Source of the DNA: Candidatus Staskawiczbacteria bacterium
GTDB taxonomy: Bacteria; Patescibacteriota; Minisyncoccia; Minisyncoccales; Staskawiczbacteraceae
Length of the DNA: 54,981 nucleotides
Assembly (NCBI GenBank): GCA_903835075.1
Contig: CAILLM010000006.1
Coordinates: forward strand, 1-54,981
Direction: 5' to 3'
In this document: in pieces, positions 18,575 to 46,729 of the stretch
Layout of the letters: each line of letters begins with the position of its first letter
How positions within the stretch are numbered: the first letter of the stretch is position 1
Made by a program: the position numbers and the translations under genes
The notes under the pieces: model-generated
Seen by the model: the letters and a program-made list of their open reading frames with translations, nothing else
What the model was told of the DNA's origin: nothing
The model's database searches: none

Positions 18575-18646
18575 CTCGCCGTAGCTTTATGCGGAGGCGG
18601 GGATACTTTCTTCCATTGTCACGCCAGAGCTTTCAGCGGAAGCAGA
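18575..18646 (+). repeat. Two family B repeats forming the NrdD C-terminal tail and stop
   Basis: CTCGCCGTAGCTTTATGCGGAGGCGGG (18575-18601) contains the stop codon; a degenerate copy CGCCAGAGCTTTCAGCGGAAGCAG is at about 18622-18645. Confidence 0.65.
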
Positions 18647-20797
18647 TACTGCTTCGGTAACTTGCTGAGTTGTTTCCATTGGGAAAGCGAACTCTTTTCT
18701 TTCTTCAAATTCTTGCTTTTTACCTTTGTGCCATTGTTGAACAGGCCTTATGTAGCCGACAACCCTTGAATACACTTCACAAGGCTGTTTTATGGTGCAC
18801 TGAGGGCATTCAAAGTGTTCACCTGCAATATATCCATGGGTTGGGCAAATTGAGAATGTTGGAGTCAGTGTAATATATGGCAAGCTGTAATTTTCACAAA
18901 TTTTCTTTACCAAAGCTTTTGCCTGATTTGGATCTGAAACTTTTTCACCCAAGAAAATATGCAAAACTGTTCCACCTGTATATTTTGCCTGTAAGTCATT
19001 TTGTAAGTCTAAGGCTTCAAAAATATCATCTGTAAATCCTACTGGCAATTGGCTGGAGTTTGTGTAGTAAGGGACTTCTTTTGTTCCTGAAGTAATAATA
19101 TCTGGAAATTTTTCTCGGTCTGTACGAGCTTGCCTGTAGCTGGTTCCCTCTCCTGGAGTGGCTTCCAAGTTAAACAAGTTTCCTGTTTCTTCTTGGAACC
19201 TAACCATTGTGTCACGCATGAAATCCAAAACTTCAAGCGCAAACTTTTTGCCTTTTGGAGTTGTAATATCTTCTTCCAAAAAGTTAAGTAAAGCCTCATT
19301 CATTCCCATAATTCCAATTGTTGAGAAATGATTTCCAAAATAAGTATTTCTCATTTTTTTCATTTCTTCTAAGTAATGTCTGGAATATGGGTAAAGTCCT
19401 TTTTCCATAAAGTCATCTAATGCTTTTCTCTTAATTTCCAAACTTTCTTTTGCCAATTCCATTAATTTGGTTAATTTTTCAAAAAATTCTGTTTTTGTTT
19501 TTGAGGTATATCCAATTCTTGGCAAATTTATTGTAACTACTCCAATAGACCCTGTTTTTGGCGAAGAGCCAAACAATCCACCTCCTCTTTTATATAATTC
19601 TCTGTTATCTAATCTAAGCCTGCAACACATTGACCTGGCGTCGTCGGGGCTCATGTCGGACTGAATGAAGTTTGAGAAATAGTTAATTCCATATTTTGCT
19701 GTTGCTTCCCACATTGCAGTTAAGTTTGGGTTATCCCATTCAAAATCTTTTGTAATTGAAACTGTTGGAATTGGGAAAGTAAATGGTCTGCCCGAAGCAT
19801 CACCCTCCATTAATCCTTCATAAAATGCTCTAATAAACATATCCATTTCTGGCTGGAAATCGCCGTAAGTTTCATTTTGTGGTTCACCTCCAATAATTAC
19901 CGGTTGTTTTGCCAAGAAACTTGGCGCCTTAATGTCTAAAGAAACATTTAAAAATGGCGTTTGAAAACCAACGCGGGTTGGCACCATGCAGTTGTATAAA
20001 AATTCCTGCATAGATTGCTTAACTTGCTTGTAGTCTAGTTTGTCATACCTAATAAATGGTGCCAAAAGCGTGTCAAAGTTTGAAACCGCATTTGCTCCAG
20101 CTGTTTCTCCCTGCAAAGTAAACAAAACGTTAACCAATTGCCCCAAGGCTGTTCTAAAATGTTTTGGTGCTCGGCATTCTATTTTTCCGGAAACTCCGCC
20201 AAACCCTTTTACTAAAAAGTCATACAAATCCCAACCTGCGCAATAAGGAGCCAATAATTCTAAATTGTGAATGTGAAAATCTTCGCTTAAAGCAGCATCT
20301 CTAATTTCTTTAGGATAAATTTTGTTTAGCCAATATTTTTTTGAAATGTAAGAACCAACATATTGATTTAATCCTTGCAAAGAAAAAGTCATGTTGGCAT
20401 TTTCTTTAACTTGCCAATCAATTTCTTTTAAATAACTGTCCACTTTTTCAGAAGAATCGTCAGTTGCTTTTGTGGCTTCACGAATAGCTCTTCTTTGTTC
20501 GCGATACAAAACATAAGCCTTGGCGGTTTCAACCAAGCCTTCCAACATCAAGGCTTCTTCCACAATGTTTTGAACTTGCTCAATTGTTGGAATTTCCTCT
20601 TTTTTAAATCTGCGGTTCATTAAAGCAACCACTTTGTCGGAAACTCTTTTAGATTCTGGACCATTTCCTGAGTTTGTTGCAGTTACGGCCTTGTGAACGG
20701 CTTCGGCAATTTTCTCTTGGTCAAAATCAACAACCCTGCCGTCTCTTTTTCTAACTTTTTCTATATGGTTCTCTGTTTTTTTTATTTCTTCTGACAT
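18587..20797 (-). CDS. nrdD: Class III anaerobic ribonucleoside-triphosphate reductase with ATP cone
   Basis: VRKRDGR ATP cone, SMCCRL, EATPGEGTSYR, CPTH/CPQC and YSRVVGY glycyl-radical motif. Start set at MSEEIKK. Confidence 0.95.
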   Translation of the reverse strand: MSEEIKKTENHIEKVRKRDGRVVDFDQEKIAEAVHKAVTATNSGNGPESKRVSDKVVALMNRRFKKEEIPTIEQVQNIVEEALMLEGLVETAKAYVLYREQRRAIREATKATDDSSEKVDSYLKEIDWQVKENANMTFSLQGLNQYVGSYISKKYWLNKIYPKEIRDAALSEDFHIHNLELLAPYCAGWDLYDFLVKGFGGVSGKIECRAPKHFRTALGQLVNVLFTLQGETAGANAVSNFDTLLAPFIRYDKLDYKQVKQSMQEFLYNCMVPTRVGFQTPFLNVSLDIKAPSFLAKQPVIIGGEPQNETYGDFQPEMDMFIRAFYEGLMEGDASGRPFTFPIPTVSITKDFEWDNPNLTAMWEATAKYGINYFSNFIQSDMSPDDARSMCCRLRLDNRELYKRGGGLFGSSPKTGSIGVVTINLPRIGYTSKTKTEFFEKLTKLMELAKESLEIKRKALDDFMEKGLYPYSRHYLEEMKKMRNTYFGNHFSTIGIMGMNEALLNFLEEDITTPKGKKFALEVLDFMRDTMVRFQEETGNLFNLEATPGEGTSYRQARTDREKFPDIITSGTKEVPYYTNSSQLPVGFTDDIFEALDLQNDLQAKYTGGTVLHIFLGEKVSDPNQAKALVKKICENYSLPYITLTPTFSICPTHGYIAGEHFECPQCTIKQPCEVYSRVVGYIRPVQQWHKGKKQEFEERKEFAFPMETTQQVTEAVSASAESSGVTMEESIPASA

Positions 20798-20809
20798 AAA
20801 ATTGGGGAC

Positions 20810-20894
20810 AAAAAAAGGCATTTGATTTTAATTAGCTTATTGTTTAAAAATCATGACCCTCATTTCTAAACAATGAGTTTATTAAAATGCCTTT
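20810..20894 (-). promoter_or_regulatory. Long imperfect hairpin with U-tract in the nrdD 5' leader
   Basis: AAAGGCATTT (20814-20823) pairs with AAATGCCTTT (20885-20894); the inner arms 20829-20851 and 20862-20884 are mostly complementary. Confidence 0.5.
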
Positions 20895-20911
20895 CTAAAT
20901 TATTAATATTA

Positions 20912-20949
20912 TTTTCCCGCCGCAGCGGGATCCCGCTTTGGCGGGAAAA
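20912..20949. repeat. Family C double hairpin (intergenic)
   Basis: TTTTCCCGC-CGCA-GCGGGA-TCCCGC-TTTG-GCGGGAAAA. Confidence 0.85.
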
Positions 20950-20966
20950 TCGACTAGATTACTCCT

Positions 20967-21025
20967 ATTTTACTCTACCCAACAGCCCTGTCAAATCCTG
21001 ATTTACCTATACAACCTGTGGATAA
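20967..21025 (-). promoter_or_regulatory. nrdD promoter with upstream consensus DnaA box
   Basis: TTGACA-16-TAAAAT (20994-20967); TTATCCACA at 21025-21017. Confidence 0.6.
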
Positions 21026-21033
21026 CTCCATTT

Positions 21034-21987
21034 TTAAAATTTTGTTGCTATAACTGTAATTTTTAATTCTCCTTTTTTTAAATTATTATCTTTAACTGCA
21101 CCAAAAATTATTTCTGCTTTTGAGTCTACGTTTTTGGTTATAACTTTTGCTGCTTGCTGTATTTCATTTAACGTAACATCATTTCCAGCAACAGAAAATA
21201 AAACTCCTTTAGAACCTTGGATTGAAAAATCTAGCAATGGCGAACTAATAGCTTTTTCAGCTGCCACTACTGCCCTGTTTTCCCCCAAAGCTCTTCCTGC
21301 CCCAAACAATGCTTGACCAGAATTTTTCATAATAGAAACCACTGAAGCAAAATCAATGTTTATAATTCCAGGCACTAAAATTAAATCTGTAATTGATTGT
21401 ACTGCTTCCCGCAAAATATCGTCACAAATCAAAAATGCTTCTGAAACTGTAGTTTTTTCGTCAATAATTTTTAAAAGCTTATCATTAGATATAACCAACA
21501 AAGAATCCACATGGCTGCGTAAATTTTTTATTGATTCTACTGCAATGTTTTTTCTTTCTTGTCCTTCAAAAGAAAACGGCGTAGTAACCACCCCAATAGT
21601 TAAAATGCCAAGACTTTTTGCAATCTCGGCAACAACAGGCGAAGCCCCCGAACCAGTTCCTCCGCCCAACCCACAAGTCACAAAAACCATATCAGCCTTG
21701 CCCGCCGTAGCCTTGGCAGAGGCGGGTCCCCCACATAACGCTTCAATAATTTCTTCTCTAGATTCTTCTGCTGATTTTCTTCCCAAATCCGCATCCATTC
21801 CTGTACCAAGTCCCTTGGTAGTATCTTTCCCAATTAAAATTTTCTTATGACATTTTGAAAAGTGCAAAGCTTGAGCATCAGTATTTAATGCCATCAATTC
21901 TGCTCCCTGCATTTCGAACTTAGCCATTCTAGAAACCGTGTTAGAGCCCGAGCCTCCAACTCCTATAACTTTTATACTTGGTTGCAT
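21034..21987 (-). CDS. ftsZ: Cell division protein FtsZ (divergent, no C-terminal tail)
   Basis: IKVIGVGG, NTDAQAL, GLGGGTGSG and PFSFEG; adjacent to ftsA. Confidence 0.93.
   Translation of the reverse strand: MQPSIKVIGVGGSGSNTVSRMAKFEMQGAELMALNTDAQALHFSKCHKKILIGKDTTKGLGTGMDADLGRKSAEESREEIIEALCGGPASAKATAGKADMVFVTCGLGGGTGSGASPVVAEIAKSLGILTIGVVTTPFSFEGQERKNIAVESIKNLRSHVDSLLVISNDKLLKIIDEKTTVSEAFLICDDILREAVQSITDLILVPGIINIDFASVVSIMKNSGQALFGAGRALGENRAVVAAEKAISSPLLDFSIQGSKGVLFSVAGNDVTLNEIQQAAKVITKNVDSKAEIIFGAVKDNNLKKGELKITVIATKF
21698..21726 (+). repeat. Family B repeat, in frame in ftsZ
   Basis: TTGCCCGCCGTAGCCTTGGCAGAGGCGGG; encodes PASAKATAGK. Confidence 0.88.
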
Positions 21988-22002
21988 AACAATTCTATCC
22001 GT

Positions 22003-23229
22003 TTACGGGATGAAGTTTTTAAGCCACCTTTTAAGTTTGGCCCACCACCCCTGGATTGGGTTTATCATACCCCCATTTCCGTCTGGGTCAACCCCCTCCA
22101 AAACCAAACCAACTACTGTGGCCAACGCAGGATCATCTTGCAAACCAATTATGCCCTGTGGTTTTCCTATTTCACAAGATAATTTTAAAACTTCTTTTGT
22201 AAGTTCTTTTATTTTAGGAATTTTTGCACCACCACCAGTTATAACAATTCCTCCAGGCAAAGCACCTTGTCTATTAATTTTTTTCAATTCTTTTTGGACT
22301 AAATCCAAAATTTCTGAAACCCTTGGCTCAATAATATCCACCAAATTCTTTTTTGTAAAGTTAAGTGATTCTGAATTTTCAAAAATTTCTATTTTTCTTT
22401 TTGTTTGGTCTTTCTTATCTTTTTCAATTTTAGCAAACATGCATGCGCCATATTGTTTTTTAATTGACTCAGCAATTGGAACTTCTGTTTTAAGACCAAT
22501 AGCAATATCATTTGTAATATTTGCCGATCCAATTGGGAAAATTGCCAAATGAATTAAATCTCCCTCTTCAAAAACCGCCAAAGAAGTTGTGGCTGAGCCA
22601 ACATCAATCAAAGCAACCCCCAATTCTTTTTGTTGCGGAGTCAAAACAGCATTTGCCGCAGCTAGTGGCGAAGGAATCACATCTCTAATTTGTAATTTAG
22701 AACCCAAAACCGCTTGAGTTAAATTTGTAAAATATGGCTGAAAATAACAAAGTAACAACACTTTTGCCTCCAGCCTAACACCAGTTAAATTTTCAGGTTG
22801 CTTTATACCTCTTTGGTCATCAATAATAAATTCTTTAGGAATAACATCAAGTATCTCATCATTTTTAGAAGAAATATTTATTGCTCTAGTTGCCTGTAAA
22901 ACCCTATCAACATCTTCTTTAGAAATTCTTTGGTCTGCCCTTGAAACAGAAATTATGCCGTCTGAAGGAGTAACATACAAATGACTGCCTCCAATATTCA
23001 CATAAACAGAATCAATTCTTCTGTTACAATCTTTCTCAATCCCAGACATTATCATTTGTATATTTTTCACGGTTTCTTCAGCAGAAACAACTGCACCTTT
23101 TCTAAGTCCAAAAGAAGGAATTTCCGCATAAGACAAAACTTCCCAGTCATTTCCTTTTTTCTGAGCCACAAGCGCCTTAATGCTATGTGTCCCAATATCT
23201 AAACCAGTAATAATATTATTACGCGCCAT
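22003..23229 (-). CDS. ftsA: Cell division protein FtsA
   Basis: GLDIGT, IDVGSATT and ITGGG motifs; C-terminal amphipathic helix WWAKLKRWLKNF. Confidence 0.95.
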   Translation of the reverse strand: MARNNIITGLDIGTHSIKALVAQKKGNDWEVLSYAEIPSFGLRKGAVVSAEETVKNIQMIMSGIEKDCNRRIDSVYVNIGGSHLYVTPSDGIISVSRADQRISKEDVDRVLQATRAINISSKNDEILDVIPKEFIIDDQRGIKQPENLTGVRLEAKVLLLCYFQPYFTNLTQAVLGSKLQIRDVIPSPLAAANAVLTPQQKELGVALIDVGSATTSLAVFEEGDLIHLAIFPIGSANITNDIAIGLKTEVPIAESIKKQYGACMFAKIEKDKKDQTKRKIEIFENSESLNFTKKNLVDIIEPRVSEILDLVQKELKKINRQGALPGGIVITGGGAKIPKIKELTKEVLKLSCEIGKPQGIIGLQDDPALATVVGLVLEGVDPDGNGGMINPIQGWWAKLKRWLKNFIP

Positions 23230-23236
23230 AATTATT

Positions 23237-23662
23237 TTATTTTACTATAGATAAATATTTTTCTTGCTTTTCATCCATTATTTTTTCCTCTTTTCTGGAT
23301 TTTTCATGGTCATATCCACACAAATGCAATATTCCATGAACAAAAACTTTCAACATTTCTTTTTCAAATGCAACTCCATACTTCTTGGCATTTTCTCTAA
23401 CAACTTCTGGACAAATTACAATTTCGCCAAAAATATTTTCGTCATTTAACTCAAATGAAAGAACGTCTGTTGCTTTGTCCTTTTTACGAAACTGTTTATT
23501 TAGTTTCCTTATCTCTTCTTTATTAACAAAAGCCAAAGATAATATTTCTGTTTCTCTATTTTCGCCTTTTAATACAATTTTTGCAACTGTGGAAAAAACC
23601 TTTTTATCCACAGTTCCAAATAACACAGTTTTTTCTGTTAGATTACTTATCTCAATTTTCAT
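23237..23662 (-). CDS. ybeY: rRNA maturation endoribonuclease YbeY
   Basis: TDVLSF and HGILHLCGYDH. Confidence 0.95.
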   Translation of the reverse strand: MKIEISNLTEKTVLFGTVDKKVFSTVAKIVLKGENRETEILSLAFVNKEEIRKLNKQFRKKDKATDVLSFELNDENIFGEIVICPEVVRENAKKYGVAFEKEMLKVFVHGILHLCGYDHEKSRKEEKIMDEKQEKYLSIVK

Positions 23663-23664
23663 AA

Positions 23665-24192
23665 TTATCTTATAACTTTAAAACTAGAAAGAATTTGATT
23701 AAACATTGTTTGATAGTTTTCAGCTAATTCCTTTTCTTTAGTTTTATCTTTCAAAGGTATGTAATTATGTTCTGTTATTACGTATTTAAAATTATTATAG
23801 AAAAAAACTAGCTTATTTCTAACTTTAGTATAATTTTCTGGTACGCAATAGACTAAAACTTCAAAAACAACACCTTCATTATCTTTTTGATTTCCAAATT
23901 TAAATGCTCCCACTTCATACACCGCATTTTTATTTAATTTATCGTTCTTACAATTTTTTAAAATTTCAGCAATACTATTTTCCGAATAATTTGTATTTTC
24001 TTGTGCATGCCAACCGCTAGGAGTTTGCAATTCAAACCCGTAATATTTATTTTCTATAATATAATTATTTGGCTTAGCAAAAACCTTATATGCAAAAAAT
24101 CCACCAATTAACAAAACCAGCAGAATAACAATTCCTACAATATATATTTGAGGTATTTTTTTCTCTCGGCCCGAGGATTTTCTTTTTGCCAT
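23665..24192 (-). CDS. Hypothetical membrane-anchored protein (PsbP-like fold possible)
   Basis: N-terminal TM helix, YGFELQTPSGW and C-terminal FNQILSSFK. Confidence 0.7.
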   Translation of the reverse strand: MAKRKSSGREKKIPQIYIVGIVILLVLLIGGFFAYKVFAKPNNYIIENKYYGFELQTPSGWHAQENTNYSENSIAEILKNCKNDKLNKNAVYEVGAFKFGNQKDNEGVVFEVLVYCVPENYTKVRNKLVFFYNNFKYVITEHNYIPLKDKTKEKELAENYQTMFNQILSSFKVIR

Positions 24193-24223
24193 TATTATAT
24201 TTTACACCATTTTCAAATAAAAC

Positions 24224-24244
24224 AAAAACCGCCTTACGGCGGTT
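24224..24244 (-). terminator. Intrinsic terminator
   Basis: AACCGCC-TTAC-GGCGGTT-type stem with a U-tract on the minus strand. Confidence 0.7.
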
Positions 24245-24248
24245 CAAT

Positions 24249-24746: not shown

Positions 24747-24965
24747 TTACTTAGGCTTTGCTAATTTGTCGGCTTTAACTTTCTCTGCTCTCAACTCAAT
24801 TCTTCTCAAAGCAGATCTCTTTTTAACCAAAGCAGACTTTGCTCTTTTATGAAATCTTTTCTTTCTGATTTCAAGCAAAACACCTGATTGTCTTACTGTT
24901 TTTGTAAAACGGTGTACCAAGTTTTGTGATGTTTCTTTTTGATTTTTTGTTACTTGTACTGGCAT
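24747..24965 (-). CDS. rpsU: 30S ribosomal protein bS21
   Basis: Basic 72-aa protein with LVHRFTKTVRQSGVLLEIRKKRF; rpsU-yqeY synteny. Confidence 0.8.
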   Translation of the reverse strand: MPVQVTKNQKETSQNLVHRFTKTVRQSGVLLEIRKKRFHKRAKSALVKKRSALRRIELRAEKVKADKLAKPK

Positions 24966-24994
24966 AGTAATAATTTTTAATTTCTAATTTTTAA

Positions 24995-26281: not shown

Positions 26282-26305
26282 TTATTTTTTATTTTTATTT
26301 TTAAA

Positions 26306-26959: not shown

Positions 26960-27063
26960 CTAATATAGCTTAAATTGACTGATTAATACGCTTATAGTAT
27001 CATATTTTCCAGGTAATTGCAAGTACCACAAAAAGTGCTATAATTATCCAAATAATACAAAAC

Positions 27064-31383: not shown

Positions 31384-33390
31384 ATGGATGATAAAAATTT
31401 AAACCAAATTTTAATTGTTGGAATTACCCCCTACTTTTTGGAAAAGGAGGCTTTTTGGTTTAATGAAAACCTTCAACAAATTTTAGAAGCCCGAAGTACT
31501 CAAAACTTTTTTGAAGACAATATAATTTTTTTACAAAACAACCAAAGCTACCAATTTTCACAATTTATTAGAAAACTTGATGAAATGGGCTATGAAAAAG
31601 TTTTTAAAGTTTCAGACCCTGGAGAATTTGCCCAACATGGTGGGATTATAGATGTCTTCCCTATCAACATGCTCCAAGCCGTACGAATTGATTTTCTCGG
31701 GAATGAGGTGGATAGTATGCAGTTGTTAGATGAAAAAAAGTTTTACCCGCCTAAATTTTCCGAAGAAAAATTTGTGCGGGCGAGAGAAATATTGCTAAAA
31801 CGGTTAAAGTCGCAAAAAATATATTCTGAATTAAAAGGTTTAAAGCCAGGCGATTATTTGGTTCACCTAGACCATGGAATTGGGCAATTTATAGGAATAG
31901 AAAAATTTTCCCGCCTTAGCGGGACCCCGCTCGAGGCGGGGGAAACTGACGAATATTATGTTTTACAATATGACAAAGAAGATAAGCTTTTCGTTCCGTT
32001 AGGATTGGAAAGAAAATTATCAAAATATGTTGGGTTCCAAGATCCAAAAGTTTCACGACTGGGATCAGCCTTGTGGCAAAAAACAAAACGAGCCATAAAA
32101 GAAAACGTTGAAAAGCTTGCTAAAGAACTCTTGCAATTATATTCACAAAAAGAAATTACCGAACGCGCCCCTTATGCACAAGATCCTGACATGGAGTCTC
32201 AATTTAGGGCTAGCTTTCCATTCCAAGAAACACCTGACCAACTGCAAACCATAGAAGATATCAAAAATGACTTACAAAAAACAAAACCAATGGACCGCAT
32301 TGTTTGTGGTGATGTTGGTTTTGGAAAAACAGAAGTGGCAATGCGAACTGCCCTAATGGCTGTAGCCGACAACAAACAAACAGCCTTAATCTGCCCCACC
32401 GCCATTTTAGCAAACCAACATTTTAATTCTTTTAAAGAAAGGTTTAAAAACTTGCCAGTTAGAATTTCTGTAATTTCTAGTTTGCAAACAAAAACAGAAC
32501 AACAAAAGATTATCAAAGATTTAAAAGATGGCAGAATAGACATTTTAATTGGCACACATAGACTTTTGTCACGTGATATAGAGTTTAAAAATTTACAACT
32601 TTTAATAATAGATGACGAACAAAAATTTGGCGTAAAGCAAAAAGAAAAATTACGTCATTTAAAAAGCAATTTAGACATTTTAAGTTTGTCGGCCACGCCA
32701 ATTCCCCGCACAATTTATTTTGCGCTTTCTTCGCTTAAAAGCATCAGTTTGATGCAAACTCCGCCAATGGGTAGGCAGGCTATAAAAACAGAAATAATGC
32801 AGTACAAAGACGAAACTATTAAACGCATAATAAATTCTGAGCTTGAAAGAAAGGGCCAAGTTTATTATTTGCATAATCGCGTTCAAACTATTGAAACTAA
32901 AGCCCACCAATTGAAAAAGCTAATTCCTGGCGCAAAAGTTGGAATTGTTCACGGTAAAATGCCAGAAAAACATTTAATAAAAATAATGGATGAGTTCCAA
33001 AAAGAAAAAATAAACGTATTAATTGCTACAACCATAATTGAAAACGGAATAGACTTTCCAAACGTAAACACCATTATAATAGAAGACGCCACCAAGCTTG
33101 GGCTTTCACAAGCTCACCAAATAAGGGGACGTGTTGGCAGGTCTGGCACAAAAAGTTTTGCATATTTTATGTACGAAAAAAAGAATTTGACACCGCTAGC
33201 ACAAGAAAGATTAAAAGTATTAGAAGATGCACAGGAATTAGGAGCAGGATATAGAATTGCTATGCGCGACCTAGAGTTGCGAGGTGCAGGAAACATTTTA
33301 GGACGCGAACAGTCGGGCGCTATAAATAGAATCGGTTTAAATTTATATTCTCAGATGATGTCTGAAAGTATAGAAAAGTTCCGCCAATAA
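31384..33390 (+). CDS. mfd: Transcription-repair coupling factor, short form
   Basis: UvrB-interaction segment (GGIIDVFP), CarD-like YLVHLDHGIG, GDVGFGKT, DDEQKFG, SATPIPR and RDLELRGAG. Confidence 0.9.
   Translation: MDDKNLNQILIVGITPYFLEKEAFWFNENLQQILEARSTQNFFEDNIIFLQNNQSYQFSQFIRKLDEMGYEKVFKVSDPGEFAQHGGIIDVFPINMLQAVRIDFLGNEVDSMQLLDEKKFYPPKFSEEKFVRAREILLKRLKSQKIYSELKGLKPGDYLVHLDHGIGQFIGIEKFSRLSGTPLEAGETDEYYVLQYDKEDKLFVPLGLERKLSKYVGFQDPKVSRLGSALWQKTKRAIKENVEKLAKELLQLYSQKEITERAPYAQDPDMESQFRASFPFQETPDQLQTIEDIKNDLQKTKPMDRIVCGDVGFGKTEVAMRTALMAVADNKQTALICPTAILANQHFNSFKERFKNLPVRISVISSLQTKTEQQKIIKDLKDGRIDILIGTHRLLSRDIEFKNLQLLIIDDEQKFGVKQKEKLRHLKSNLDILSLSATPIPRTIYFALSSLKSISLMQTPPMGRQAIKTEIMQYKDETIKRIINSELERKGQVYYLHNRVQTIETKAHQLKKLIPGAKVGIVHGKMPEKHLIKIMDEFQKEKINVLIATTIIENGIDFPNVNTIIIEDATKLGLSQAHQIRGRVGRSGTKSFAYFMYEKKNLTPLAQERLKVLEDAQELGAGYRIAMRDLELRGAGNILGREQSGAINRIGLNLYSQMMSESIEKFRQ
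31746..31780. repeat. GC-clamped hairpin, in frame in mfd
   Basis: CCCGC-CTAAATTTTCCGAAGAAAAATTTGT-GCGGG; encodes PPKFSEEKFVR. Confidence 0.65.
31906..31945. repeat. Family C double hairpin, in frame in mfd
   Basis: TTTTCCCGC-CTTA-GCGGGA-CCCCGC-TCGAG-GCGGGGGAAA; encodes FSRLSGTPLEAGE. Confidence 0.82.
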
Positions 33391-37281: not shown

Positions 37282-37365
37282 GCCGAGGTGGTGAAATTGG
37301 CAAACACGTCGGACTCAAAATCCGATGCCCTTAAAAGCTTGGGGGTTCAAGTCCCCCCCTCGGCA
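37282..37365 (+). tRNA. tRNA-Leu(CAA)
   Basis: Acceptor stem GCCGAGG/CCTCGGC, anticodon arm TCGGA-CTCAAAA-TCCGA, long variable arm, T arm GGGGG-TTCAAGT-CCCCC; CCA not encoded. Confidence 0.95.
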
Positions 37366-37387
37366 CACTTCGATAAACTCAGCGCAG
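37366..37387 (+). repeat. Degenerate family A repeat directly 3' of the tRNA
   Basis: CACTTCGATAAACTCAGCGCAG. Confidence 0.6.
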
Positions 37388-37392
37388 ACACT

Positions 37393-37424
37393 TAAAAAAC
37401 GCGACCAATTGGTCGCGTTTTTTA
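37393..37424. terminator. Bidirectional terminator (perfect palindrome)
   Basis: TAAAAAACGCGACCAATTGGTCGCGTTTTTTA. Confidence 0.8.
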
Positions 37425-38172: not shown

Positions 38173-38174
38173 AT

Positions 38175-38672: not shown

Positions 38673-39913
38673 TTTGGTAGTGGAAATTTTTTACAAAATC
38701 TCTTAATTTCTTCACGAACTTTTTTAACAGACTTTTCATCAGAAATAACGCGGTTGTACCATTCGGCAATTTTCTTCATTTCTTTTTCTTTCATTCCACG
38801 TGTAGTTATAGCGGGTGTACCAATTCTTATTCCCGAAGGCTTAAACGGCGGAGCTGGGTCATAAGGAATAGTATTTTTATTAACAGTAATCCCCGCCTCT
38901 TCAAGCCTAGTAGCAGCATCGGTTCCAGAAATATTTTTATTCCGCAAATCTATAAGAATTAAATGATTGTCTGTACCCCCAGAAACAATTTCAAACCCAT
39001 ACTTTTTCAATTCTGCAGATAAGGCTTTGGCATTTTTTACAATTTGATGTGCATATTTTTTAAATGCAGATGTTGAAGCTTCTTTAAGACAAACTGCAAT
39101 TCCAGCAATTTGATGCATGTGTGGGCCACCCTGAAATCCAGGGAAAATTGCTTTATCAATTTTTTTTGCTAAATCAGGATCTTTATCTAACCCCTTTTGA
39201 GTGACCATAATCATTCCACCTCTTGGCCCACGTAAAGTCTTATGAGTTGTAGTGGAAATAATGTGAACATGTGGTACAGGACTTGGGTGAGCGCCTCCAG
39301 CAACTAGTCCCGAAATGTGAGAAATATCGGCAACTAAATAAGCACCCACGGAATCGGCAATTTCTCCTAATTTTTTCCAATCAAAAATTCTAGAATAAGC
39401 AGTGGCTCCTACCCAAATTAACTTTGGCTTACTTTCTCGTGCCAACTTTTCCATTGCAACATAATCAAGCAAGCCCGTTTTTTCATCAACGCCATATTGC
39501 ACTGGCTTAAAAAATTTAGCTGAAAAATTTACTTTCCAGCCATGTGTTAAGTGCCCACCCATAGGAAGTGCCATGCCCATAGTGACATCCCCTGGTTCAC
39601 AAACTGCCAAGTGCACAGCGGCGTTGGCTGGCGAACCAGAATATGGTTGAACATTTGCATGTGGCACTTTAAACAGCTTTTTTGCCCTGTCTATACATAA
39701 ATTCTCCAAAATATCATAATATTTTAACCCGGAATAATATCTCTTCCCAGGGTAACCCTCAGCATACTTATCGGTTAAAATAGATCCCAATGCCTCACGA
39801 ATAGCCGGAGTACAATGATTCTCTGATGGAATCATCTCCAAAGAAGTTTTTTGTCTTTCCGTCTCTAGGTCAATTAATTTTGTAATTTGAGGGTCTTGTT
39901 TTTTTAATTTCAT
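38669..39913 (-). CDS. glyA: Serine hydroxymethyltransferase
   Basis: KYAEGYPGKRYY, GGHLTHG and TTTHKTLRGPRGG. Confidence 0.97.
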   Translation of the reverse strand: MKLKKQDPQITKLIDLETERQKTSLEMIPSENHCTPAIREALGSILTDKYAEGYPGKRYYSGLKYYDILENLCIDRAKKLFKVPHANVQPYSGSPANAAVHLAVCEPGDVTMGMALPMGGHLTHGWKVNFSAKFFKPVQYGVDEKTGLLDYVAMEKLARESKPKLIWVGATAYSRIFDWKKLGEIADSVGAYLVADISHISGLVAGGAHPSPVPHVHIISTTTHKTLRGPRGGMIMVTQKGLDKDPDLAKKIDKAIFPGFQGGPHMHQIAGIAVCLKEASTSAFKKYAHQIVKNAKALSAELKKYGFEIVSGGTDNHLILIDLRNKNISGTDAATRLEEAGITVNKNTIPYDPAPPFKPSGIRIGTPAITTRGMKEKEMKKIAEWYNRVISDEKSVKKVREEIKRFCKKFPLPK

Positions 39914-40473
39914 TTTCTTATAATTTTTATATTTTCTCCTGACAAATCTATTATGGCTGATGGCTTATTTTTTGGCAACTCTCCAGCGTCAGCAACAAGT
40001 ACATCTTCATTTTTAAATTGCCTCAAAACATCTTTTATTTTTACTGTTGCTGGTTTACCAGAAATATTAGCTGAAGTCTGGGCTAGTGGCTTCTTAAATT
40101 CATCTAAAACCAAACTTAAAAACTTATACTTTGGAATTCTAATTCCAATTGTTTTTATCGGGCCTCGCCCGCCGAAGCCTTGGCGAAGGCGGGAATTTAA
40201 AATTAATGTTATATTATTATGTTTCAAAAGTTCTGCTTCGTTTTCATTTACAAAAGCAACCTTACTTGCTATTTTGACATCTTTAACAAAAACTCCCAAT
40301 GGTTTTGACTTGTCTCTTCTTTTAATTTTAAAAATACTTTCTACTGCCTTTTTATTTGAGGCATCGCAAACCAACCCATAAACCGTGTCTGTAGGAAAAA
40401 CCAAAACTGCTCCTTTTTTAAGAGCAGTAATTATTTTGCTTATATTATTTTTATTGGCTTTTATTATTTCCAT
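39910..40473 (-). CDS. tsaC: L-threonylcarbamoyladenylate synthase (TsaC/YrdC)
   Basis: PTDTVYGL, KRRDKSKP, GIRIP and TSANISG. Confidence 0.92.
   Translation of the reverse strand: MEIIKANKNNISKIITALKKGAVLVFPTDTVYGLVCDASNKKAVESIFKIKRRDKSKPLGVFVKDVKIASKVAFVNENEAELLKHNNITLILNSRLRQGFGGRGPIKTIGIRIPKYKFLSLVLDEFKKPLAQTSANISGKPATVKIKDVLRQFKNEDVLVADAGELPKNKPSAIIDLSGENIKIIRK
40168..40193 (+). repeat. Family B repeat, in frame in tsaC
   Basis: CCCGCCGAAGCCTTGGCGAAGGCGGG; encodes SRLRQGFGG. Confidence 0.88.
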
Positions 40474-41194
40474 TTAAAAAATATTCTAATTTTTTGACAT
40501 CTTCGGGTCTTCCGAAGTCCATCCAAAACCCATTAATTTTATTTATTTTTACCCCTTTCTCCTTAGCCAATAAAGAAACCGCATCTGTAATTTCGTATTC
40601 TCCTCTGGGAGACTTTTCTATTTGCCCCAATTTATCAAAAATTTCAGGAGTAAATTTGTACATACTCACATTTATTAAGTTGCCAAAAAACTCTTTGGCC
40701 CGCCCTGAGCCGAGCTGAAGGGGCTTTTCTACTATTTTTGTTAAAAACTCGCCATCGGCAACCAATACCCCAAAATTTTCTGGATGCTCATTCTCTATCC
40801 CAGAAACATAGCTAAATTCATCATCTATATTTATTGCTTTTAAGTCTTCCGCTGAATAATAGTTGTCCCCACTTACATATAAAAATTGCTCGTTTATATC
40901 CTTAACACACATCAATGGCACAGCTGTCCCATTTTTTTCATTAAAGTTAAAAAACTCAAATTGATTAATAACTTTTACATTATACTTATACTCTTTCAAA
41001 AATTCTTCTATCGACTGACCCTGGTACCCAACAATCAAAGTAATATCTTTATAGCCCGCTTCCAATAAATTATCTAAAACATAAGCCAAAAATGGCTTGC
41101 CGTTAACTTCAATCAAATGCTTTGGCTTATCTTGAGACAATTCTCCCATGCGGGTCCCCTTGCCTGCAGCACAAATAACAACTTTATTCACCAT
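40451..41194 (-). CDS. Sugar-phosphate nucleotidyltransferase
   Basis: AAGKGTRM, KPKHL, VEKP, SPRGEYEITD and WMDFG. Confidence 0.9.
   Translation of the reverse strand: MVNKVVICAAGKGTRMGELSQDKPKHLIEVNGKPFLAYVLDNLLEAGYKDITLIVGYQGQSIEEFLKEYKYNVKVINQFEFFNFNEKNGTAVPLMCVKDINEQFLYVSGDNYYSAEDLKAINIDDEFSYVSGIENEHPENFGVLVADGEFLTKIVEKPLQLGSGRAKEFFGNLINVSMYKFTPEIFDKLGQIEKSPRGEYEITDAVSLLAKEKGVKINKINGFWMDFGRPEDVKKLEYFLNGNNKSQ
40697..40723 (-). repeat. Family A repeat, in frame in the nucleotidyltransferase
   Basis: GCCCTTCAGCTCGGCTCAGGGCGGGCC; encodes PLQLGSGRA right after EK. Confidence 0.78.
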
Positions 41195-41750
41195 AGCCAA
41201 GATTAAATGCTTTAATATTAAGTTCTAAATATTTTTCAGGGATAACGTTTTTTATAGCTGTTAATGCAGACTCTTTTTTAATTGGCATTAATTTATTGGC
41301 AACAGCATGCCCCACCATGTACAAAGTACAAACAACTTCATTTTGCAATTTTTCTTTACAATCTTCAGATGCTGGCACCAAATAAAAATTACTTTTAAAG
41401 CCTCTAAGTTGTTTTATAATTTCTTCTTTTGTTGGAGCTCCAGGAATTGGTAAAATATAATTATTAACCAAAAGTCTTGTTTGTTTGCCAGCCTTAGCTG
41501 ATTCTCTCAAACCTTCCATTGCTTCCAAGGCTAAAATTAAATCTGCTTGCCCATTAGAAACCATAGGTGAAAAAACTTTTTTGCCAAACCTAATATGAGC
41601 CTCAACGCTCCCACCTCTTTGTGAAAGGCCATGAAGCTCAGAAGATTTTACATCATACCCCTCAACAACTGCTGCTTCATCAATTACTTGAAGCAAGGTA
41701 ATTATTCCCTGTCCACCAACTCCTGTTAAAATTAAATTAAAATTTTCCAT
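41184..41750 (-). CDS. iorB: Indolepyruvate:ferredoxin oxidoreductase beta subunit
   Basis: GVGGQG, ELHGLSQRGGSV and NIKAF. Confidence 0.9.
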   Translation of the reverse strand: MENFNLILTGVGGQGIITLLQVIDEAAVVEGYDVKSSELHGLSQRGGSVEAHIRFGKKVFSPMVSNGQADLILALEAMEGLRESAKAGKQTRLLVNNYILPIPGAPTKEEIIKQLRGFKSNFYLVPASEDCKEKLQNEVVCTLYMVGHAVANKLMPIKKESALTAIKNVIPEKYLELNIKAFNLGYGE

Positions 41751-41754
41751 AGTA

Positions 41755-43374
41755 TTAAGATTTTTTTTGTCTGCGCTCTAATAGTGCGCAAATTCTTTTA
41801 CAAATTATTAATGAAATTTCATCTTTTTCTAAAAATTCCTTAACTGTGCTTTCCAATTCCTTTATACTAATGGGGTCTAAAACTTTGATATGCTTTACCC
41901 CACAAGCTTTAGCAATTTCTTCTATACTAACTTGCGTTGTGTCTTCCCCCATTAAAGTTTTTCCCATTCCAGGGTTTGGCTGGTGACCTGTCATTGCTGT
42001 GATCCTATTATCCAAAATAACCATCAATGGTTTTGATTTATTATAAACAGCGTTTAAAAGTGGCGAAATTCCTGCATGAAAAAATGTTCCATCTCCCATT
42101 ATAGAAATTACTTTTTGATTGGTGGACTTTGAGACTCCATGACCAATTCCTAAACTAGCTCCCATAGAAAACAACGTATCTTGTATGTTGTGTGGGGCAA
42201 ACCCTGCAATCATATTACACCCAATATCCCCTGTAAAAATAGCATTAGGTGCAACTCTTTTTAAGGTTGGGAAAACATACCAATATGGGCAACCTTCACA
42301 TAGCCTAGCGGTTCTTCTTGGTAAATCAATTTTCTTTACTTTAAATTCTAAAAATTTCTTGCCTGTTATTTTTGCCAATGCAACACAAACTTTTTCTGTG
42401 TTTAATTCTCCGATTATTGGCAAAACATTTTTTCCAAAAATTTGCAACTTTAAATTTTCTATTTTCGCTAAAACATTAACCTCTCTTTCTATATAGCCAT
42501 CTAATTCTTCAACAACTAAAAGTTTTTTTAATGGATGAATAAATTTTTTAATTTTATCTTCTGGTAATGGGTAAAAAAATCCAAGTTTTAAAATTGGCAA
42601 ATCTAATTTCAAAACTTCTAAAGCCTCTTTAACGTGCAGATATGAAACACCAGAAGTTATAACCCCAACCTTATTCTTTGATGAATCTATTAAATTTATT
42701 TTTGACTTCTCAGCAAATATCTGAATTTTTTTAATCTTATCTAAAAGCTCTTTCTTCATCTCCATTGTTCGTGGAGGCATTGTAGCAAACTGATAAGGAT
42801 TTTTTTCAAATTGCCCTTTTTTAAATTCAGCATTTTTTTTAACATCTTCAAACGTTACTGGCATTTTTTGGTGATTAACCCTTGTCGTCGTATGCAAAAT
42901 AACAGGTGTATTAAACTTCTCTGAAATTTCAAAACCTAGTTTTGTAAAATCATAACACTCTTGAGGATCAGCTGGTTCTAATGTTGGAATGTGCCCAAAC
43001 TGTGAATAAATTCTTGTGTTTTGTTCTGTTTGAGCCGAGCTCCAGCAAGAGGGATCATCAGCAATAACAATAACCATGGCCCCCTTGGTGCCAGTGTAGG
43101 CTAATGGCAACAAAGAGTCCGAACAAACATTAATTCCAAAACTTTTCATGCTAACCAAGGTTTTTAACCCCGAAAAGCTGGCTCCAATTGCCGACTCTAG
43201 GCCAACCTTTTCATTGGTTGCCCACTCTACATAGACCCCATTTTGTGCGGCAATTTTGGCAAAATCGTCTCCAATTTCTGCTGAAGGGCATCCAGGATAT
43301 CCTGAAACATAAGAAACCCCTGAATCTATGGCTGCTTGGATTATTGCATTGTTTCCTAATAATATTTTTTTCAT
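41755..43374 (-). CDS. iorA: Indolepyruvate:ferredoxin oxidoreductase alpha subunit (no C-terminal ferredoxin domain)
   Basis: GYPGCPSAE, NEKVGLE, LCEGCP, GDIGC, GDGTFFH and LDNRITAMTGHQ. Confidence 0.9.
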   Translation of the reverse strand: MKKILLGNNAIIQAAIDSGVSYVSGYPGCPSAEIGDDFAKIAAQNGVYVEWATNEKVGLESAIGASFSGLKTLVSMKSFGINVCSDSLLPLAYTGTKGAMVIVIADDPSCWSSAQTEQNTRIYSQFGHIPTLEPADPQECYDFTKLGFEISEKFNTPVILHTTTRVNHQKMPVTFEDVKKNAEFKKGQFEKNPYQFATMPPRTMEMKKELLDKIKKIQIFAEKSKINLIDSSKNKVGVITSGVSYLHVKEALEVLKLDLPILKLGFFYPLPEDKIKKFIHPLKKLLVVEELDGYIEREVNVLAKIENLKLQIFGKNVLPIIGELNTEKVCVALAKITGKKFLEFKVKKIDLPRRTARLCEGCPYWYVFPTLKRVAPNAIFTGDIGCNMIAGFAPHNIQDTLFSMGASLGIGHGVSKSTNQKVISIMGDGTFFHAGISPLLNAVYNKSKPLMVILDNRITAMTGHQPNPGMGKTLMGEDTTQVSIEEIAKACGVKHIKVLDPISIKELESTVKEFLEKDEISLIICKRICALLERRQKKS

Positions 43375-43375
43375 T

Positions 43376-45811
43376 TTATATGACTATGTTGATTAATTTA
43401 TTATACACAAAAACTATTTTTTTTACCTCGGCGTCACCAATTAGGACTTTTATTTTTTCAGATTTTAAAACTAATTTTTCAACTTCTTTTTGTGAAGAAC
43501 CAGCCTTCATTTCTATTTTGTCGCGTACTTTCCCGTTTATTTGTACTATTAAAAGTACTCTTTTTTCTTCAATTAATTTTTCATCATACTTTGGCCATTT
43601 CTGTTGGCAACATAGATCTTTGTTACCCAAACTTACCCATAGTTCTTCGGCTAAGTGCGGAGCAAACGGAGAAAAAATTCTCAAAAAGTCAGCCAAGTCT
43701 TTTTTATCTAAACCATTTTCCGAAGTCTGCCATGCGTTTACAAATTCCATCATTGAGCTAATTGCAGTATTAAATTTTAAATTTTCAACATCTTCCCCAA
43801 CTTTCTTAATTGTTTTATGTAAAACTTTTTTCAGCGCCTCATCAGTCTTAGTAGCCATTTTCTTCTGTGCAGCTAAATTGTAAACTTTATCAACAAATCT
43901 TCGGCAACCCACCACCCCCTTCGTATCCCAGGGAATCATTTGCTCAAATGGTCCCATAAACATTTCATAAATTCTTAAAGTATCGGCGCCATATTGCTTT
44001 ATAATTGTATCGGGGTTTATAACATTTCCTTTTGACTTAGACATTTTGATTCCGCCTTCTCCCAAAACCATTCCATGCGAAGTTCTTTTTTTATAGGGCT
44101 CTGAACCAACACTTGCTGGCACTGCTTTAATGTCCCATAAAAATTTAAAAATAAACCTTGAATATAACAAATGCAAAGTTGTGTGCTCCATCCCTCCGTT
44201 ATACCAATCAACAGGCATCCAATATCTCATAGCTGAGTCATCAGATAATTTTTTATTATTTTTTGGGTCTATGTATCTTAAAAAATACCAATTGCTTCCT
44301 GCCCAATTTGGCATAGTGTCGGTTTCTCTTTGTGCAGGACCCTTGCAATTTGGGCAATCAGTTTTAACCCATTTTTCAATTAAAGAAAGTGGAGATTCTC
44401 CTGTGCCAGTTGGCTTATATTTTTTGACATTAGGTAGCTTTATCGGTAAGTCTTTTTCTTTAACCGGTTGCCAACCGCATTTTTTACAAAATACCATTGG
44501 AATTGGCTCGCCCCAATAATGCTGTCGTGAAAAAACCCAATCTCTCAACTTATAAGTTATTTTTGAGTTTGCTAATCCTTTAGCTGAAAGCCATTCAATT
44601 ATTTTTGGTCTAGCATCAGCAGACTTTAAACCATCAAATTCTTGAGAGTTATAAAGTGTTCCGTCGTCTTCAAAACATTCTTCTAAGTTTTTTACTTTTT
44701 GGGTTAATTCTTCATTGTCAGGTTTTATGGAAGTACGTAAAGGTATCCCATATTTCTTTGCCATTTTAAAATCTCTTTTATCATGGGCATCAGCAAAAAC
44801 AGCTCCCGTACCATAGTGGTCTAAAACAAAGTCAGCTGTCCAAACTGGCATTTCTTCGTTGGTTACAGGATTTCTAACCATAATCCCTTTCAACTGCACC
44901 CCTGTAATTTCTTTATCTTGATTTGTCCTGTCCATATCTGACGCGTTCTTCGCACCTTCTCTATATGCCAAAACTTCTTCAATATTTTCAATTTTATTTC
45001 TGTATTTATCAATAAAACTGTGCTCTGGAGACAAAATTAAAAATGTTCCAGAAAAAATTGTATCAACCCTGGTTGTAAAAACTTCTAAGTCTTCATCAAT
45101 TCCCTCAACATGAAATTTAACCACTGCTCCATGCGACTGGCCAATCCAATCTCTTTGTTGAGTTTTAATTTTTTCTAGATAGTCAACATCCTCTAAATCT
45201 TTAATTAATCTTTCAGCATAATTGGTAATTTTTATCATCCACTGATCTTTTTCCTTTTTTTCTACTTTTGTCCCACACCTCTCACACTTTCCATCAATTA
45301 CTTCTTCATTAGCTAAACCAATCTTATCTTTCGGACACCAATTTATAGAAATTTTACTTTTGTACGCTAATCCATTTTTAAATAATTGTATAAAAATCCA
45401 CTGCGTCCATTTATAATATTTTGGATCTGTTGTATCAATTTCACGGCTCCAATCAAAAGACAAACCTAAGTTCTGCATTTGACTTCTAAAATTATCTGTA
45501 TTCTTCTTTGTAACTACCGATGGGTGAACTCCTTTTTTAATAGCATAATTTTCTGTTGGTAAACCAAAAGCATCCCAACCCATTGGATACAAAACATTAT
45601 AACCTTGCATTCGGCGTTTGCGGGCAATTATGTCAAAAGCAGTAAAGCTTCGGCAATGCCCTACATGAAGCCCATCTCCCGAAGGGTATGGAAACTCCAC
45701 CAAAAGATAATATTTCTTCTTTTTAGAGCCATTTTTAGCCTTAAAAACGCCCGACGAGTACCACTTATTCTGCCATTTCTGCTCTATTTTTTTAGGATTA
45801 TATTTTGCCAT
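43376..45811 (-). CDS. leuS: Leucine--tRNA ligase
   Basis: FPYPSG, HVGH, SRQHYWG and KMSKS. Confidence 0.97.
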   Translation of the reverse strand: MAKYNPKKIEQKWQNKWYSSGVFKAKNGSKKKKYYLLVEFPYPSGDGLHVGHCRSFTAFDIIARKRRMQGYNVLYPMGWDAFGLPTENYAIKKGVHPSVVTKKNTDNFRSQMQNLGLSFDWSREIDTTDPKYYKWTQWIFIQLFKNGLAYKSKISINWCPKDKIGLANEEVIDGKCERCGTKVEKKEKDQWMIKITNYAERLIKDLEDVDYLEKIKTQQRDWIGQSHGAVVKFHVEGIDEDLEVFTTRVDTIFSGTFLILSPEHSFIDKYRNKIENIEEVLAYREGAKNASDMDRTNQDKEITGVQLKGIMVRNPVTNEEMPVWTADFVLDHYGTGAVFADAHDKRDFKMAKKYGIPLRTSIKPDNEELTQKVKNLEECFEDDGTLYNSQEFDGLKSADARPKIIEWLSAKGLANSKITYKLRDWVFSRQHYWGEPIPMVFCKKCGWQPVKEKDLPIKLPNVKKYKPTGTGESPLSLIEKWVKTDCPNCKGPAQRETDTMPNWAGSNWYFLRYIDPKNNKKLSDDSAMRYWMPVDWYNGGMEHTTLHLLYSRFIFKFLWDIKAVPASVGSEPYKKRTSHGMVLGEGGIKMSKSKGNVINPDTIIKQYGADTLRIYEMFMGPFEQMIPWDTKGVVGCRRFVDKVYNLAAQKKMATKTDEALKKVLHKTIKKVGEDVENLKFNTAISSMMEFVNAWQTSENGLDKKDLADFLRIFSPFAPHLAEELWVSLGNKDLCCQQKWPKYDEKLIEEKRVLLIVQINGKVRDKIEMKAGSSQKEVEKLVLKSEKIKVLIGDAEVKKIVFVYNKLINIVI

Positions 45812-45858
45812 AGTATTTTCCTATAATAGCACAATCATATAAATTTTAAAGCCCCAAC

Positions 45859-45885
45859 AAAAAACCGCCCTTTGGGGCAGTTTTT
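45859..45885. terminator. Terminator after tatD
   Basis: AAAAAACCGCCC-TTT-GGGGCAGTTTTT. Confidence 0.65.
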
Positions 45886-45886
45886 A

Positions 45887-46729
45887 CTATATTTTAAACA
45901 ATTTTTTAGCGTTTGCAGTTGTTGCAGAGGCAACTTCATCAAAACTTAGACCTTTTAGATCGGCTATTTTCTGGATAACGTGTTTTACAAATATTGGCTC
46001 GTTTCGGGCGTCCTTCGCTGTTCCCTCCTTCGCCAAGGCTACGGCGGGCAAGGGTGTTAGATAAGGGCAGTCAGTTTCAACTACAATTTTATCTAAAGGA
46101 ATTTTTCTAATGATTTCATCAATATCAAATTTAAAAATAATTCCATTAATTCCAATACAAAAACCTAAAGCTAAATATTTTTCTGCTTCTTCCCATGTTC
46201 CTGTAAAACAATGAATTGTTCCTGAGACTTTGTGTTTTTCTAAAATTGCCAAAGCATCTTCATGGGCCATTCTGCAGTGCACAATTAAGGGCAGGCCCAA
46301 CTCCTCTGCTAACTCAATTTGCTGAATAAAAACTTTTCTTTGATTTTCTTTAAATTCTTCTTTTTTTGTTGTGCCTTTTGGTTTGTAATAGTAGTCCAAA
46401 CCAACTTCACCAATTGCCACCACTTTTTTTGACTTTGCTAATTCTCTGTATTTTTCCTTATCAAAAACCTCTCCAAGGGGAGCAAAATCACCTTCATCTA
46501 AGTCCATATGCAACTTCATTAAATCAGTTTTTATATGAATTGGGTGCATTCCAATTGCAGCATATATTCCTTCATTTTTTTCTGCCAACTCAATAGCATG
46601 TTGTGAGGTTTCATATTTTGTACCAACATCTATGCAAACACCCCCCGCCACTTGCGTGCGTTTTATTACCTCACCCCTATCGGCATCATACGCCTTAAAA
46701 TTTAAATGACTATGTGTGTCTATTATCAT
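45887..46729 (-). CDS. tatD: TatD family hydrolase
   Basis: IDTHSH, GMHP, IGEVGLDY, HCR, HCF and ETDCPY; start reassigned to 46729. Confidence 0.95.
   Translation of the reverse strand: MIIDTHSHLNFKAYDADRGEVIKRTQVAGGVCIDVGTKYETSQHAIELAEKNEGIYAAIGMHPIHIKTDLMKLHMDLDEGDFAPLGEVFDKEKYRELAKSKKVVAIGEVGLDYYYKPKGTTKKEEFKENQRKVFIQQIELAEELGLPLIVHCRMAHEDALAILEKHKVSGTIHCFTGTWEEAEKYLALGFCIGINGIIFKFDIDEIIRKIPLDKIVVETDCPYLTPLPAVALAKEGTAKDARNEPIFVKHVIQKIADLKGLSFDEVASATTANAKKLFKI
46023..46051 (-). repeat. Family B repeat, in frame in tatD
   Basis: TTGCCCGCCGTAGCCTTGGCGAAGGAGGG; encodes LPAVALAKEG between PYLTP and RNEP. Confidence 0.88.

Follow-up and report, generated by a model that had tools for sequence, protein, structure and literature searches.

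The 54,981-nucleotide stretch of DNA that was analysed as a whole (the window) is contig C6 of G000, a Candidatus Staskawiczbacteria genome of 794 kb in 11 contigs, with 35% GC and a completeness of 97.9%; its size and gene content fit a Patescibacteria (CPR) genome, and its sequence is present in lake-water metagenome runs. A short palindromic element, here called family B, lies in ftsZ, tsaC and tatD and at the end of nrdD. The family-B pattern matches the window three times with 0 mismatches, at 21701 (+), 40168 (+) and 46032 (-), compared with 0.04 matches by chance, and 0 of 100 shuffles of the window get three. Including a CTTG or CTCG tail, each of these copies measures 30 nt. The copies and their host genes, all of which pass the cut-off of the NCBIfam model given, are:

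18564..18568, + strand: 5-bp GCGGG, same as the right end of the nrdD copy (18597-18601)
18569..18601, + strand: family-B variant at the nrdD end, 33 nt, loop TTTAT; gives the NrdD stop codon TAA at 18587-18589 (- strand)
18613..18646, + strand: older, decayed family-B copy in the NrdD tail, encoding VSASAESSGVTM
18587..20821, - strand: nrdD, anaerobic ribonucleotide reductase (TIGR02487)
21034..21987, - strand: ftsZ (TIGR00065)
21697..21726, + strand: family-B copy in ftsZ; peptide PASAKATAGK; net gain 33 bp
39910..40473, - strand: tsaC, threonylcarbamoyl-AMP synthase (TIGR00057)
40164..40193, + strand: family-B copy in tsaC; peptide SRLRQGFGGR; common to the sister genome G004
45887..46732, - strand: tatD nuclease (TIGR00010)
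46023..46052, - strand: family-B copy in tatD; peptide LPAVALAKEG; net gain 27 bp relative to G004; opposite orientation relative to the gene

An earlier note on this DNA had claimed that near-identical copies are translated in three different ways. The three exact matches confirm this, with the peptides PASAKATAGK, SRLRQGFGG and LPAVALAKEG located in open reading frames (ORFs); one strand of the element is read by FtsZ and TsaC in two frames, and the other strand by TatD. A stop codon of NrdD supplied by a variant and a decayed copy just upstream were likewise found as described: the TAA lies inside 18569-18601, and the score of the alignment between 18613-18646 and a copy in rpoA on contig C3 is reached by 0 of 2000 shuffles. 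An assembly artefact was ruled out, as identical contigs from four lake-water DNA runs of one study span the copies in nrdD (4/4), ftsZ (4/4), tsaC (4/4) and tatD (3/4, the contig of the fourth run stopping 20 nt beyond the copy); two of these runs may be the source of G000. Two joints skipping the ftsZ copy occur in low-depth contigs of 85% likeness and were set aside.

On its strand X, the element reads CTTG-CCCGCC-GWA-GC-loop-GC-GAA-GGCGGG, in which an outer stem leads through a 3x3 purine-rich internal loop to a small apical hairpin. Pair types of the outer stem differ while the GWA/GAA loop is kept; the scanner requires pairing, and only the variety of pairs is informative. G-U pairs are present at some stem positions. 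Sheared G-A pairs may form in the internal loop. Simple DNA folding, by a method that cannot score G-A pairs, gives the copies only -3.6 to -7.6 kcal/mol. Across 162 loci matching the pattern, the flank consensus has CTTG-Y at the 5' end, with GTAG/GAAG internal. An Rfam scan of the window, 7 G000 loci and 20 cassettes of the kind described below returned only tRNA, tmRNA and sub-threshold matches, and no family fits the fold.

Insertion into host genes and spread among genomes

Relatives carry empty alleles for all four genes, and hence the copies in ftsZ, tsaC, tatD and nrdD are insertions of a dispersed element. The ftsZ site is empty in 28 of 29 other orthologues, G010 having another hairpin family there. 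For tsaC, compared without one truncated orthologue, the B copy is absent in 22 of 23 others and the same copy is found in G004; native loops of 0-14 residues occur in 21 of the 23, and the loop of G013 holds a sequence identical, save for the first base, to the NTS consensus of the Ssn system discussed below. The tatD site (split or partial matches left aside) is empty in 17 of 21 others and filled in G024, G006, G015 and G041, in the last in a different frame. In a quick TatD tree made without the loop, the filled alleles stand at four separate places, which suggests repeated insertion; loss or gene conversion may also explain the pattern. In G009 (L085/L091) and G021 (L086/L090), the tatD match is interrupted by about 70 and 105 nt within longer open frames of 356 and 340 amino acids (aa), perhaps representing larger in-frame inserts.

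The copy that provides the stop codon of nrdD is absent from all 23 other NrdD ends, and a copy at the upstream site is present in G006 and G012. C-termini of relatives read ...VPA-stop, ...IAA-stop and ...TAV-stop. Judged from the sequence, the GCGGG at 18564-18568 and 18597-18601 is likely a target duplication, and the original stop codon was probably located at 18560-18562. Deleting one 33-nt unit from the nrdD end restores a relative-like ...ESIPA-stop. Given this restored terminus and GCGGG at both ends, the copy likely turned ...IPA-stop into ...IPASA-stop, by which NrdD would have gained two residues.

In total, G000 holds about 20 family-B copies. A strict fold search found 14, while five order-3 Markov genomes each gave none. 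Under relaxed settings, used without a separate control and letting in one or two doubtful matches, 22 came up: 16 within called ORFs, 1 at an ORF end and 5 outside. ORFs cover 89% of G000, so the copies are not enriched in genes; among the host genes is one for an uncharacterised protein of 1659 aa. The suggestion that all copies touch core genes is thus correct for the window and incorrect for the genome, and a preference for essential genes is not seen. Over 739 kb of the roughly 800 kb of G004, the 22 sites are empty (11), shared (4), partial (6) or without an orthologue (1); one of the 'shared' sites was miscalled, as another hairpin family is present there in G004. The commonest net gain at sites in G000 relative to G004 is 33 or 27 bp. 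On the 3' flank of the element, identity is about 0.6 over 18 nt versus about 0.78 further out (13 sites), perhaps an alignment effect, which was not used. Taken together, empty alleles in relatives, 14 strict folds against 0 in controls and the absence of most G000 copies from G004 bear out the inserted, dispersed element proposed in the earlier note; empty alleles and copies elsewhere in the genome, the lack of which was to count against that proposal, both exist.

Of 26 genomes of the genus, 19 contain between 1 and 14 copies (up to 2 mismatches), and a reversed control pattern gives 0. An exact 24-mer of the element occurs at no fewer than 120 GTDB loci and at 42 viral loci; the hosts of the 80 GTDB loci that were named belong to the Alphaproteobacteria, Acidobacteriota, Verrucomicrobiota, Bacteroidota, Patescibacteria and others. 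In Alphaproteobacteria and other hosts, family-B copies are nested in GTCAT-type (SRM-like) hairpins (L168, L173, L196, L199, L221, L240).

Of 153 distinct pattern loci, 110 were compared, the 43 with family motifs nearby being dropped. The word common to the left junction and the element's right end averages 3.53 nt, compared with 3.05 +/- 0.07 for shuffled partners (0 of 300 shuffles reach this). The short direct repeat at the junctions is weak but real. Clear 5-bp duplications were seen at nrdD and at three tRNA 5' ends. A fixed target duplication as a general feature was rejected, with at least 4 of 5 matches at the best offset seen at no more than 11 of 153 loci. The junctions lack precision: flanks are altered and the net length varies.

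Net insert lengths vary, and within genes they are mostly multiples of three. Among 30 genus loci, 20 coding copies are read on the strand opposite X, 5 on X, and 5 are non-coding or at edges; the bias (20/25, p 0.004) involves kin that are not independent. An alanine- and serine-rich frame of the xAKASA type is used by 18 of the 20 opposite-X copies, though 5-6 of the 6 frames are open. In the FtsZ structure model (predicted local distance difference test, pLDDT, 91.8) the insert is placed in a coil between helix 77-85 and strand 100-107, and in the TatD model (81.2) within residues 223-244, a stretch of low confidence that includes a short helix (228-235). Both models are predicted to retain the fold with the inserts, and His7, His9, Glu109, His152, His174 and Asp221 are invariant in the TatD alignment. 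This pattern would fit random insertion followed by selection for harmless loops. As the inserts are missing from most orthologues and unrelated peptides are found in the same loops, tolerance by the host proteins is a likelier explanation than usefulness. Of the proposed loops and tails, the tail is slight, NrdD having likely gained two residues, and the TsaC insert occupies a loop that measures 0-14 aa in relatives. In tsaC of G013 (L054) and ftsZ of G010 (L030), unrelated hairpin families occupy the same loops as family B, and short inserts are present in other FtsZ loops of G010, G012, G018, G022 and G023.

A GIY-YIG nuclease cassette behind tRNA ends

Among GIY-YIG nuclease genes, the fold is confined to one clade, most cassettes of which start at a tRNA CCA end. 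Of the GTDB loci with the exact 24-mer, 80 have full flanks; 12 of them have a tRNA, and at 3 a tRNA comes before the element and a GIY-YIG gene 30-42 nt after it. One such protein of 80 aa was used as query, and the best 80 of 496 confirmed metagenome loci were taken, one of which is 94% identical to the query. The positions of fold and tRNA were counted in the 69 with enough upstream DNA. The fold is present within 250 nt upstream of the nuclease gene in 61 of these (0-1 in 20 shuffles) and downstream in 3. The order is tRNA-CCA, hairpin H1, spacer, inverted hairpin H2 and the gene of the 80-aa GIY-YIG protein. The fold is found as H1 in 45, as H2 in 38 and as both in 26 cassettes, and a tRNA lies just upstream in 49; in 46 of these 49, 33 of them with tRNA-Ala, H1 starts no more than 12 nt from the tRNA end. 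The stem of H1 pairs with the tRNA CCA. H1 commonly ends CAAG-CCA, and its arm is repeated just before H2 in 36 of 47 cassettes. By sequence comparison, the free element corresponds to H1 with one stem pair changed, or to the H1 tail on the H2 stem.

A quick tree built from 154 GIY-YIG proteins unites every one of the 96 fold-bearing genes in a single clade of 114 rows (SH-aLRT 90), and 0 of the 40 rows outside it have the fold; five proteins flanked by SRM hairpins form a separate clade (SH-aLRT 96) outside it. The clade consensus keeps Tyr, Gly, Arg, His and Glu positions, which we take to be catalytic. The 96 fold-bearing proteins have a median length of 81 aa. Three of three proteins scanned score above the cut-off of PF01541, as single-domain GIY-YIG proteins. 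The sole solved relative found is PDB 1zg2 (E 6e-7). A search of viral sequences with the nuclease gave 10 pattern matches, none of which was confirmed.

Members of the clade were found in 6 of 25 genus relatives (7 genes, among 30 loci examined); UPF0213-like proteins of the genus branch away from it. The six small GIY-YIG genes of G000 are outside the clade and next to other repeats. At C9:15861 of G000, an H1 lies behind a duplicated tRNA-Glu end and is almost identical to H1 of a cassette in G008. At tRNA-Asp, -Leu and -Gly of G000, the right arm of the X-fold is the tRNA's own 5' end, and GCGGG or GCGGA is repeated at the left junction. The copies in G000 are likely orphans of a cassette carried earlier by the lineage or met in trans. 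Separately, the small GIY-YIG genes at C1:18346-18750 and C9:15860-16250 of G000 (L006, L004) begin a few bases from a tRNA 3' end; after each gene come a hairpin and 16-20 nt that repeat the tRNA end.

Further hairpin families are present in and around the window. A second, double-hairpin family (14290-14322, 20916-20947, 31910-31941) encodes SRLSGTPLEAG in Mfd and SALGGPRLAG in a ComEC-like gene, while another copy separates ftsZ from nrdD; a similar unit stands ahead of the GIY-YIG gene at G000 C2:64548. A third family with a GCTCAGG core (14611-14646, 40694-40720, 50354-50377, about 1665-1750, 12177, 15248) gives HSASSGRAGSF in NrdG, LQLGSGRAK in a nucleotidyltransferase and DPSAGSGQ, some copies being outside ORFs. 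A copy of a CCTGCC..GGCAGG family is located at 50201-50221 (LPTGKQ), common elsewhere in the genome as LPAGRQ. At 37282-37395, a CACTTCG hairpin comes directly after tRNA-Leu, and in other parts of the genome the same start is seen behind tRNA-Arg, -Met, -Lys, -Glu and -Val. The Y1 transposase gene L001 (G000 C8:99506-100351) has its own 23-bp palindrome on both sides, and a third copy lies in frame within the gene. The window also encodes, at 15276-16997 and 46732-48459, two Cys-rich paralogues of about 575 aa, with DNA 71-79% alike over parts.

Known repeat systems

Among the closest known systems are the Ssn nucleases (SsnA, cd10448) with their NTS/SRM hairpins (Chenal et al. 2025, PMC11893778), in which a small single-domain GIY-YIG gene likewise lies beside an oriented hairpin of 20-50 nt that is dispersed in the genome. 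SsnA, of 94 aa, binds its hairpin as single-stranded DNA (ssDNA), cuts adjacent to it on one strand only and ignores double-stranded DNA and RNA, and its authors raise a mobile origin (PMC11893778). Unlike Ssn, the B nucleases form a different clade in the quick tree (the cd10448 label of the five SRM-flanked reference proteins is our inference), and 0 of 5 window copies fit the published degenerate SRM pattern on either strand. B hairpins occur upstream of the gene in 61/69 and downstream in 3/69, which may be a further difference from the flanked Ssn genes. The B cassette is anchored at tRNA CCA ends, and tRNA is unmentioned in the main text on Ssn; most B copies lie in genes, compared with 2% for NTS (PMC11893778).

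The RPE of Rickettsia (PMC2229807, PMC3733652) are palindromes inserted in frame in conserved genes, in several frames and apparently tolerated, as family B is. They measure 105-146 bp versus 30-33 bp and are restricted to Rickettsia, whereas the core of B is identical in many phyla and has a candidate mobiliser. REP/REPIN elements with RAYT and the GTAG/CGTC families (Di Nocera et al. 2013, PMC3733652) are, like B, imperfect palindromes of 20-40 bp in several copies, some intragenic and some giving stops, with inverted repeat pairs beside the cognate enzyme gene (PMC3733652). In contrast to these, B has no terminal GTAG or CGTC tag, a GIY-YIG instead of an HUH partner, about 20 copies per genome and a tRNA anchor. 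A RAYT partner was ruled out in G000, the sole Y1 gene of which has a different repeat; Y1 genes were not searched at the 162 pattern loci. Miniature inverted-repeat transposable elements (MITEs) have terminal inverted repeats in common with a transposase element, and they differ in their fixed target duplication, those of B being short, variable and often absent. Prokaryotic Slx1-like/UPF0213 stand-alone proteins (PMC1564403) share the minimal GIY-YIG domain without extra domains; they are described as probable repair enzymes, and palindromes are unmentioned in PMC1564403.

By the defining features of Ssn, REP/RAYT, RPE and MITEs, the B element belongs to none of them. No paper was found on this hairpin, its strings or peptides, or a tRNA-anchored GIY-YIG cassette, in a search that did not extend to most subscription literature or the Ssn supplements. 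Palindromes in frame are a known phenomenon; the link to the tRNA-end GIY-YIG cassette is absent from the earlier note.

How the hairpins may have spread

In our best reading, the family-B copies are tolerated, non-autonomous offspring of the tRNA-end GIY-YIG cassette, RPE-like in look and Ssn- or REP-like in working. By analogy with SsnA, the clade nuclease would recognise the fold as ssDNA. Its nicks would seed microhomology-primed copying into new sites by host repair, with no true transposase, and selection would filter the survivors in genes for inserts that are in frame, alanine- and serine-rich and located in loops. Nicking and copying via short matches would account for the loose junctions, the short duplications and the variable length. 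That the hairpins spread in this manner, by nuclease cuts in ssDNA at the hairpin and host repair pasting them in at short matches, appears to us rather probable.

Several observations weigh against this account. A GIY-YIG gene lies within 700 nt of the exact 24-mer in only 3 of 80 GTDB and 0 of 42 viral loci, the exact 24-mer is present in only 3 of the 69 cassettes, and most free copies are far from any nuclease gene. No clade member was found in G000 (best score 73 versus 93-151 for members), and G000, G004 and G024, with no cognate among the loci examined, hold 8, 11 and 12 copies. The tree is a quick one of 81 columns, most clade rows of which were gathered by likeness to a B-linked query. 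Junctions at ftsZ, tatD and IF2 are without duplication; of the target duplications that the earlier note proposed to look for, nrdD has a likely one (GCGGG), and ftsZ and tatD have none. To our knowledge, GIY-YIG enzymes have no joining activity, and the association would suit movement of either partner, hairpin or nuclease, by the other.

These points leave some room for another enzyme that moves the hairpin, such as an HUH/Y1 transposase in trans, or for host recombination at replication or DNA uptake, the nuclease being a passenger of tRNA ends. HUH enzymes do recognise ssDNA hairpins and can rejoin DNA (PMC11893778). One Y1 transposase and a ComEC-like protein are encoded in G000, and copies persist in genomes where no cognate nuclease was found. 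We nevertheless regard this alternative as unlikely, since the repeat of the Y1 gene is an unrelated one, confined to three sites within or beside that gene, and the fold tracks one GIY-YIG clade. HUH chemistry is precise, unlike the imprecise junctions, altered flanks and variable net length seen here. H1 starts at the tRNA CCA end and runs in the sense that is transcribed, the coding copies mostly have the same sense, and G-U pairs occur. These features would instead suit an RNA element, namely a leader for processing or regulation of the tRNA-nuclease transcript, with copies that spread via RNA or reverse transcription and act on mRNA. This seems less probable still: the cassette carries the fold in both orientations, 20 cassettes match no Rfam family, and SsnA ignores RNA (PMC11893778). 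Furthermore, the orientation bias is coupled to one reading frame, as would suit selection on the peptide, and no clear bias relative to the replication strand is displayed by copies outside ORFs (GC skew judged by eye, small numbers).

The remaining alternative, favoured by the earlier note, is an element still active at present that supplies essential proteins with useful loops and tails. Many copies differ between the sister genomes, the same tatD site was filled at four places of the TatD tree, and the loops of ftsZ and tsaC were also struck by other hairpin families. On the other hand, there is no enrichment in genes, the inserts are missing in most orthologues, the same loops hold unrelated peptides, and NrdD likely gains two residues only. 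Several copies are decayed or common to other species, no cognate nuclease was found in G000, and no empty allele of its own organism was seen in the contigs of the four runs, which drop rare variants; present activity is not demonstrated by these copies. An RPE in guanylate kinase has a neutral or slightly harmful effect (PMC2229807). We consider a useful, presently active element very improbable.

Beyond the preferred reading of nicking and host repair, a wider proposal may tentatively be made, which we hold to be possible, somewhat short of probable: a non-Ssn GIY-YIG clade of 80 residues, together with its paired hairpin leader, would be a minimal selfish element. It would home to tRNA CCA ends and, via ssDNA nicks and host repair, spread 30-bp hairpins with no transposase involved, each hairpin family in such genomes having its own nuclease clade. 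Taken as natural probes, the inserts map loops of FtsZ, TsaC and TatD that tolerate additions. By what means palindromes this short get into protein genes when no transposase is dedicated to them has been a question since the RPEs of Rickettsia, and the 2013 survey of REP families lists the CGTC repeats as apparently lacking one (PMC3733652). One repeat family tied to one nuclease clade and an exact anchor makes this question accessible to experiments on an 80-aa protein and a 40-nt oligonucleotide. The link would also extend the Ssn concept, that of ssDNA nucleases with site specificity, to a second clade, perhaps one that reads a fold and not a fixed sequence. If the wider proposal is true, it would provide the long-missing mobiliser of palindromes that code for protein, along with ssDNA nucleases of a new, structure-reading set.

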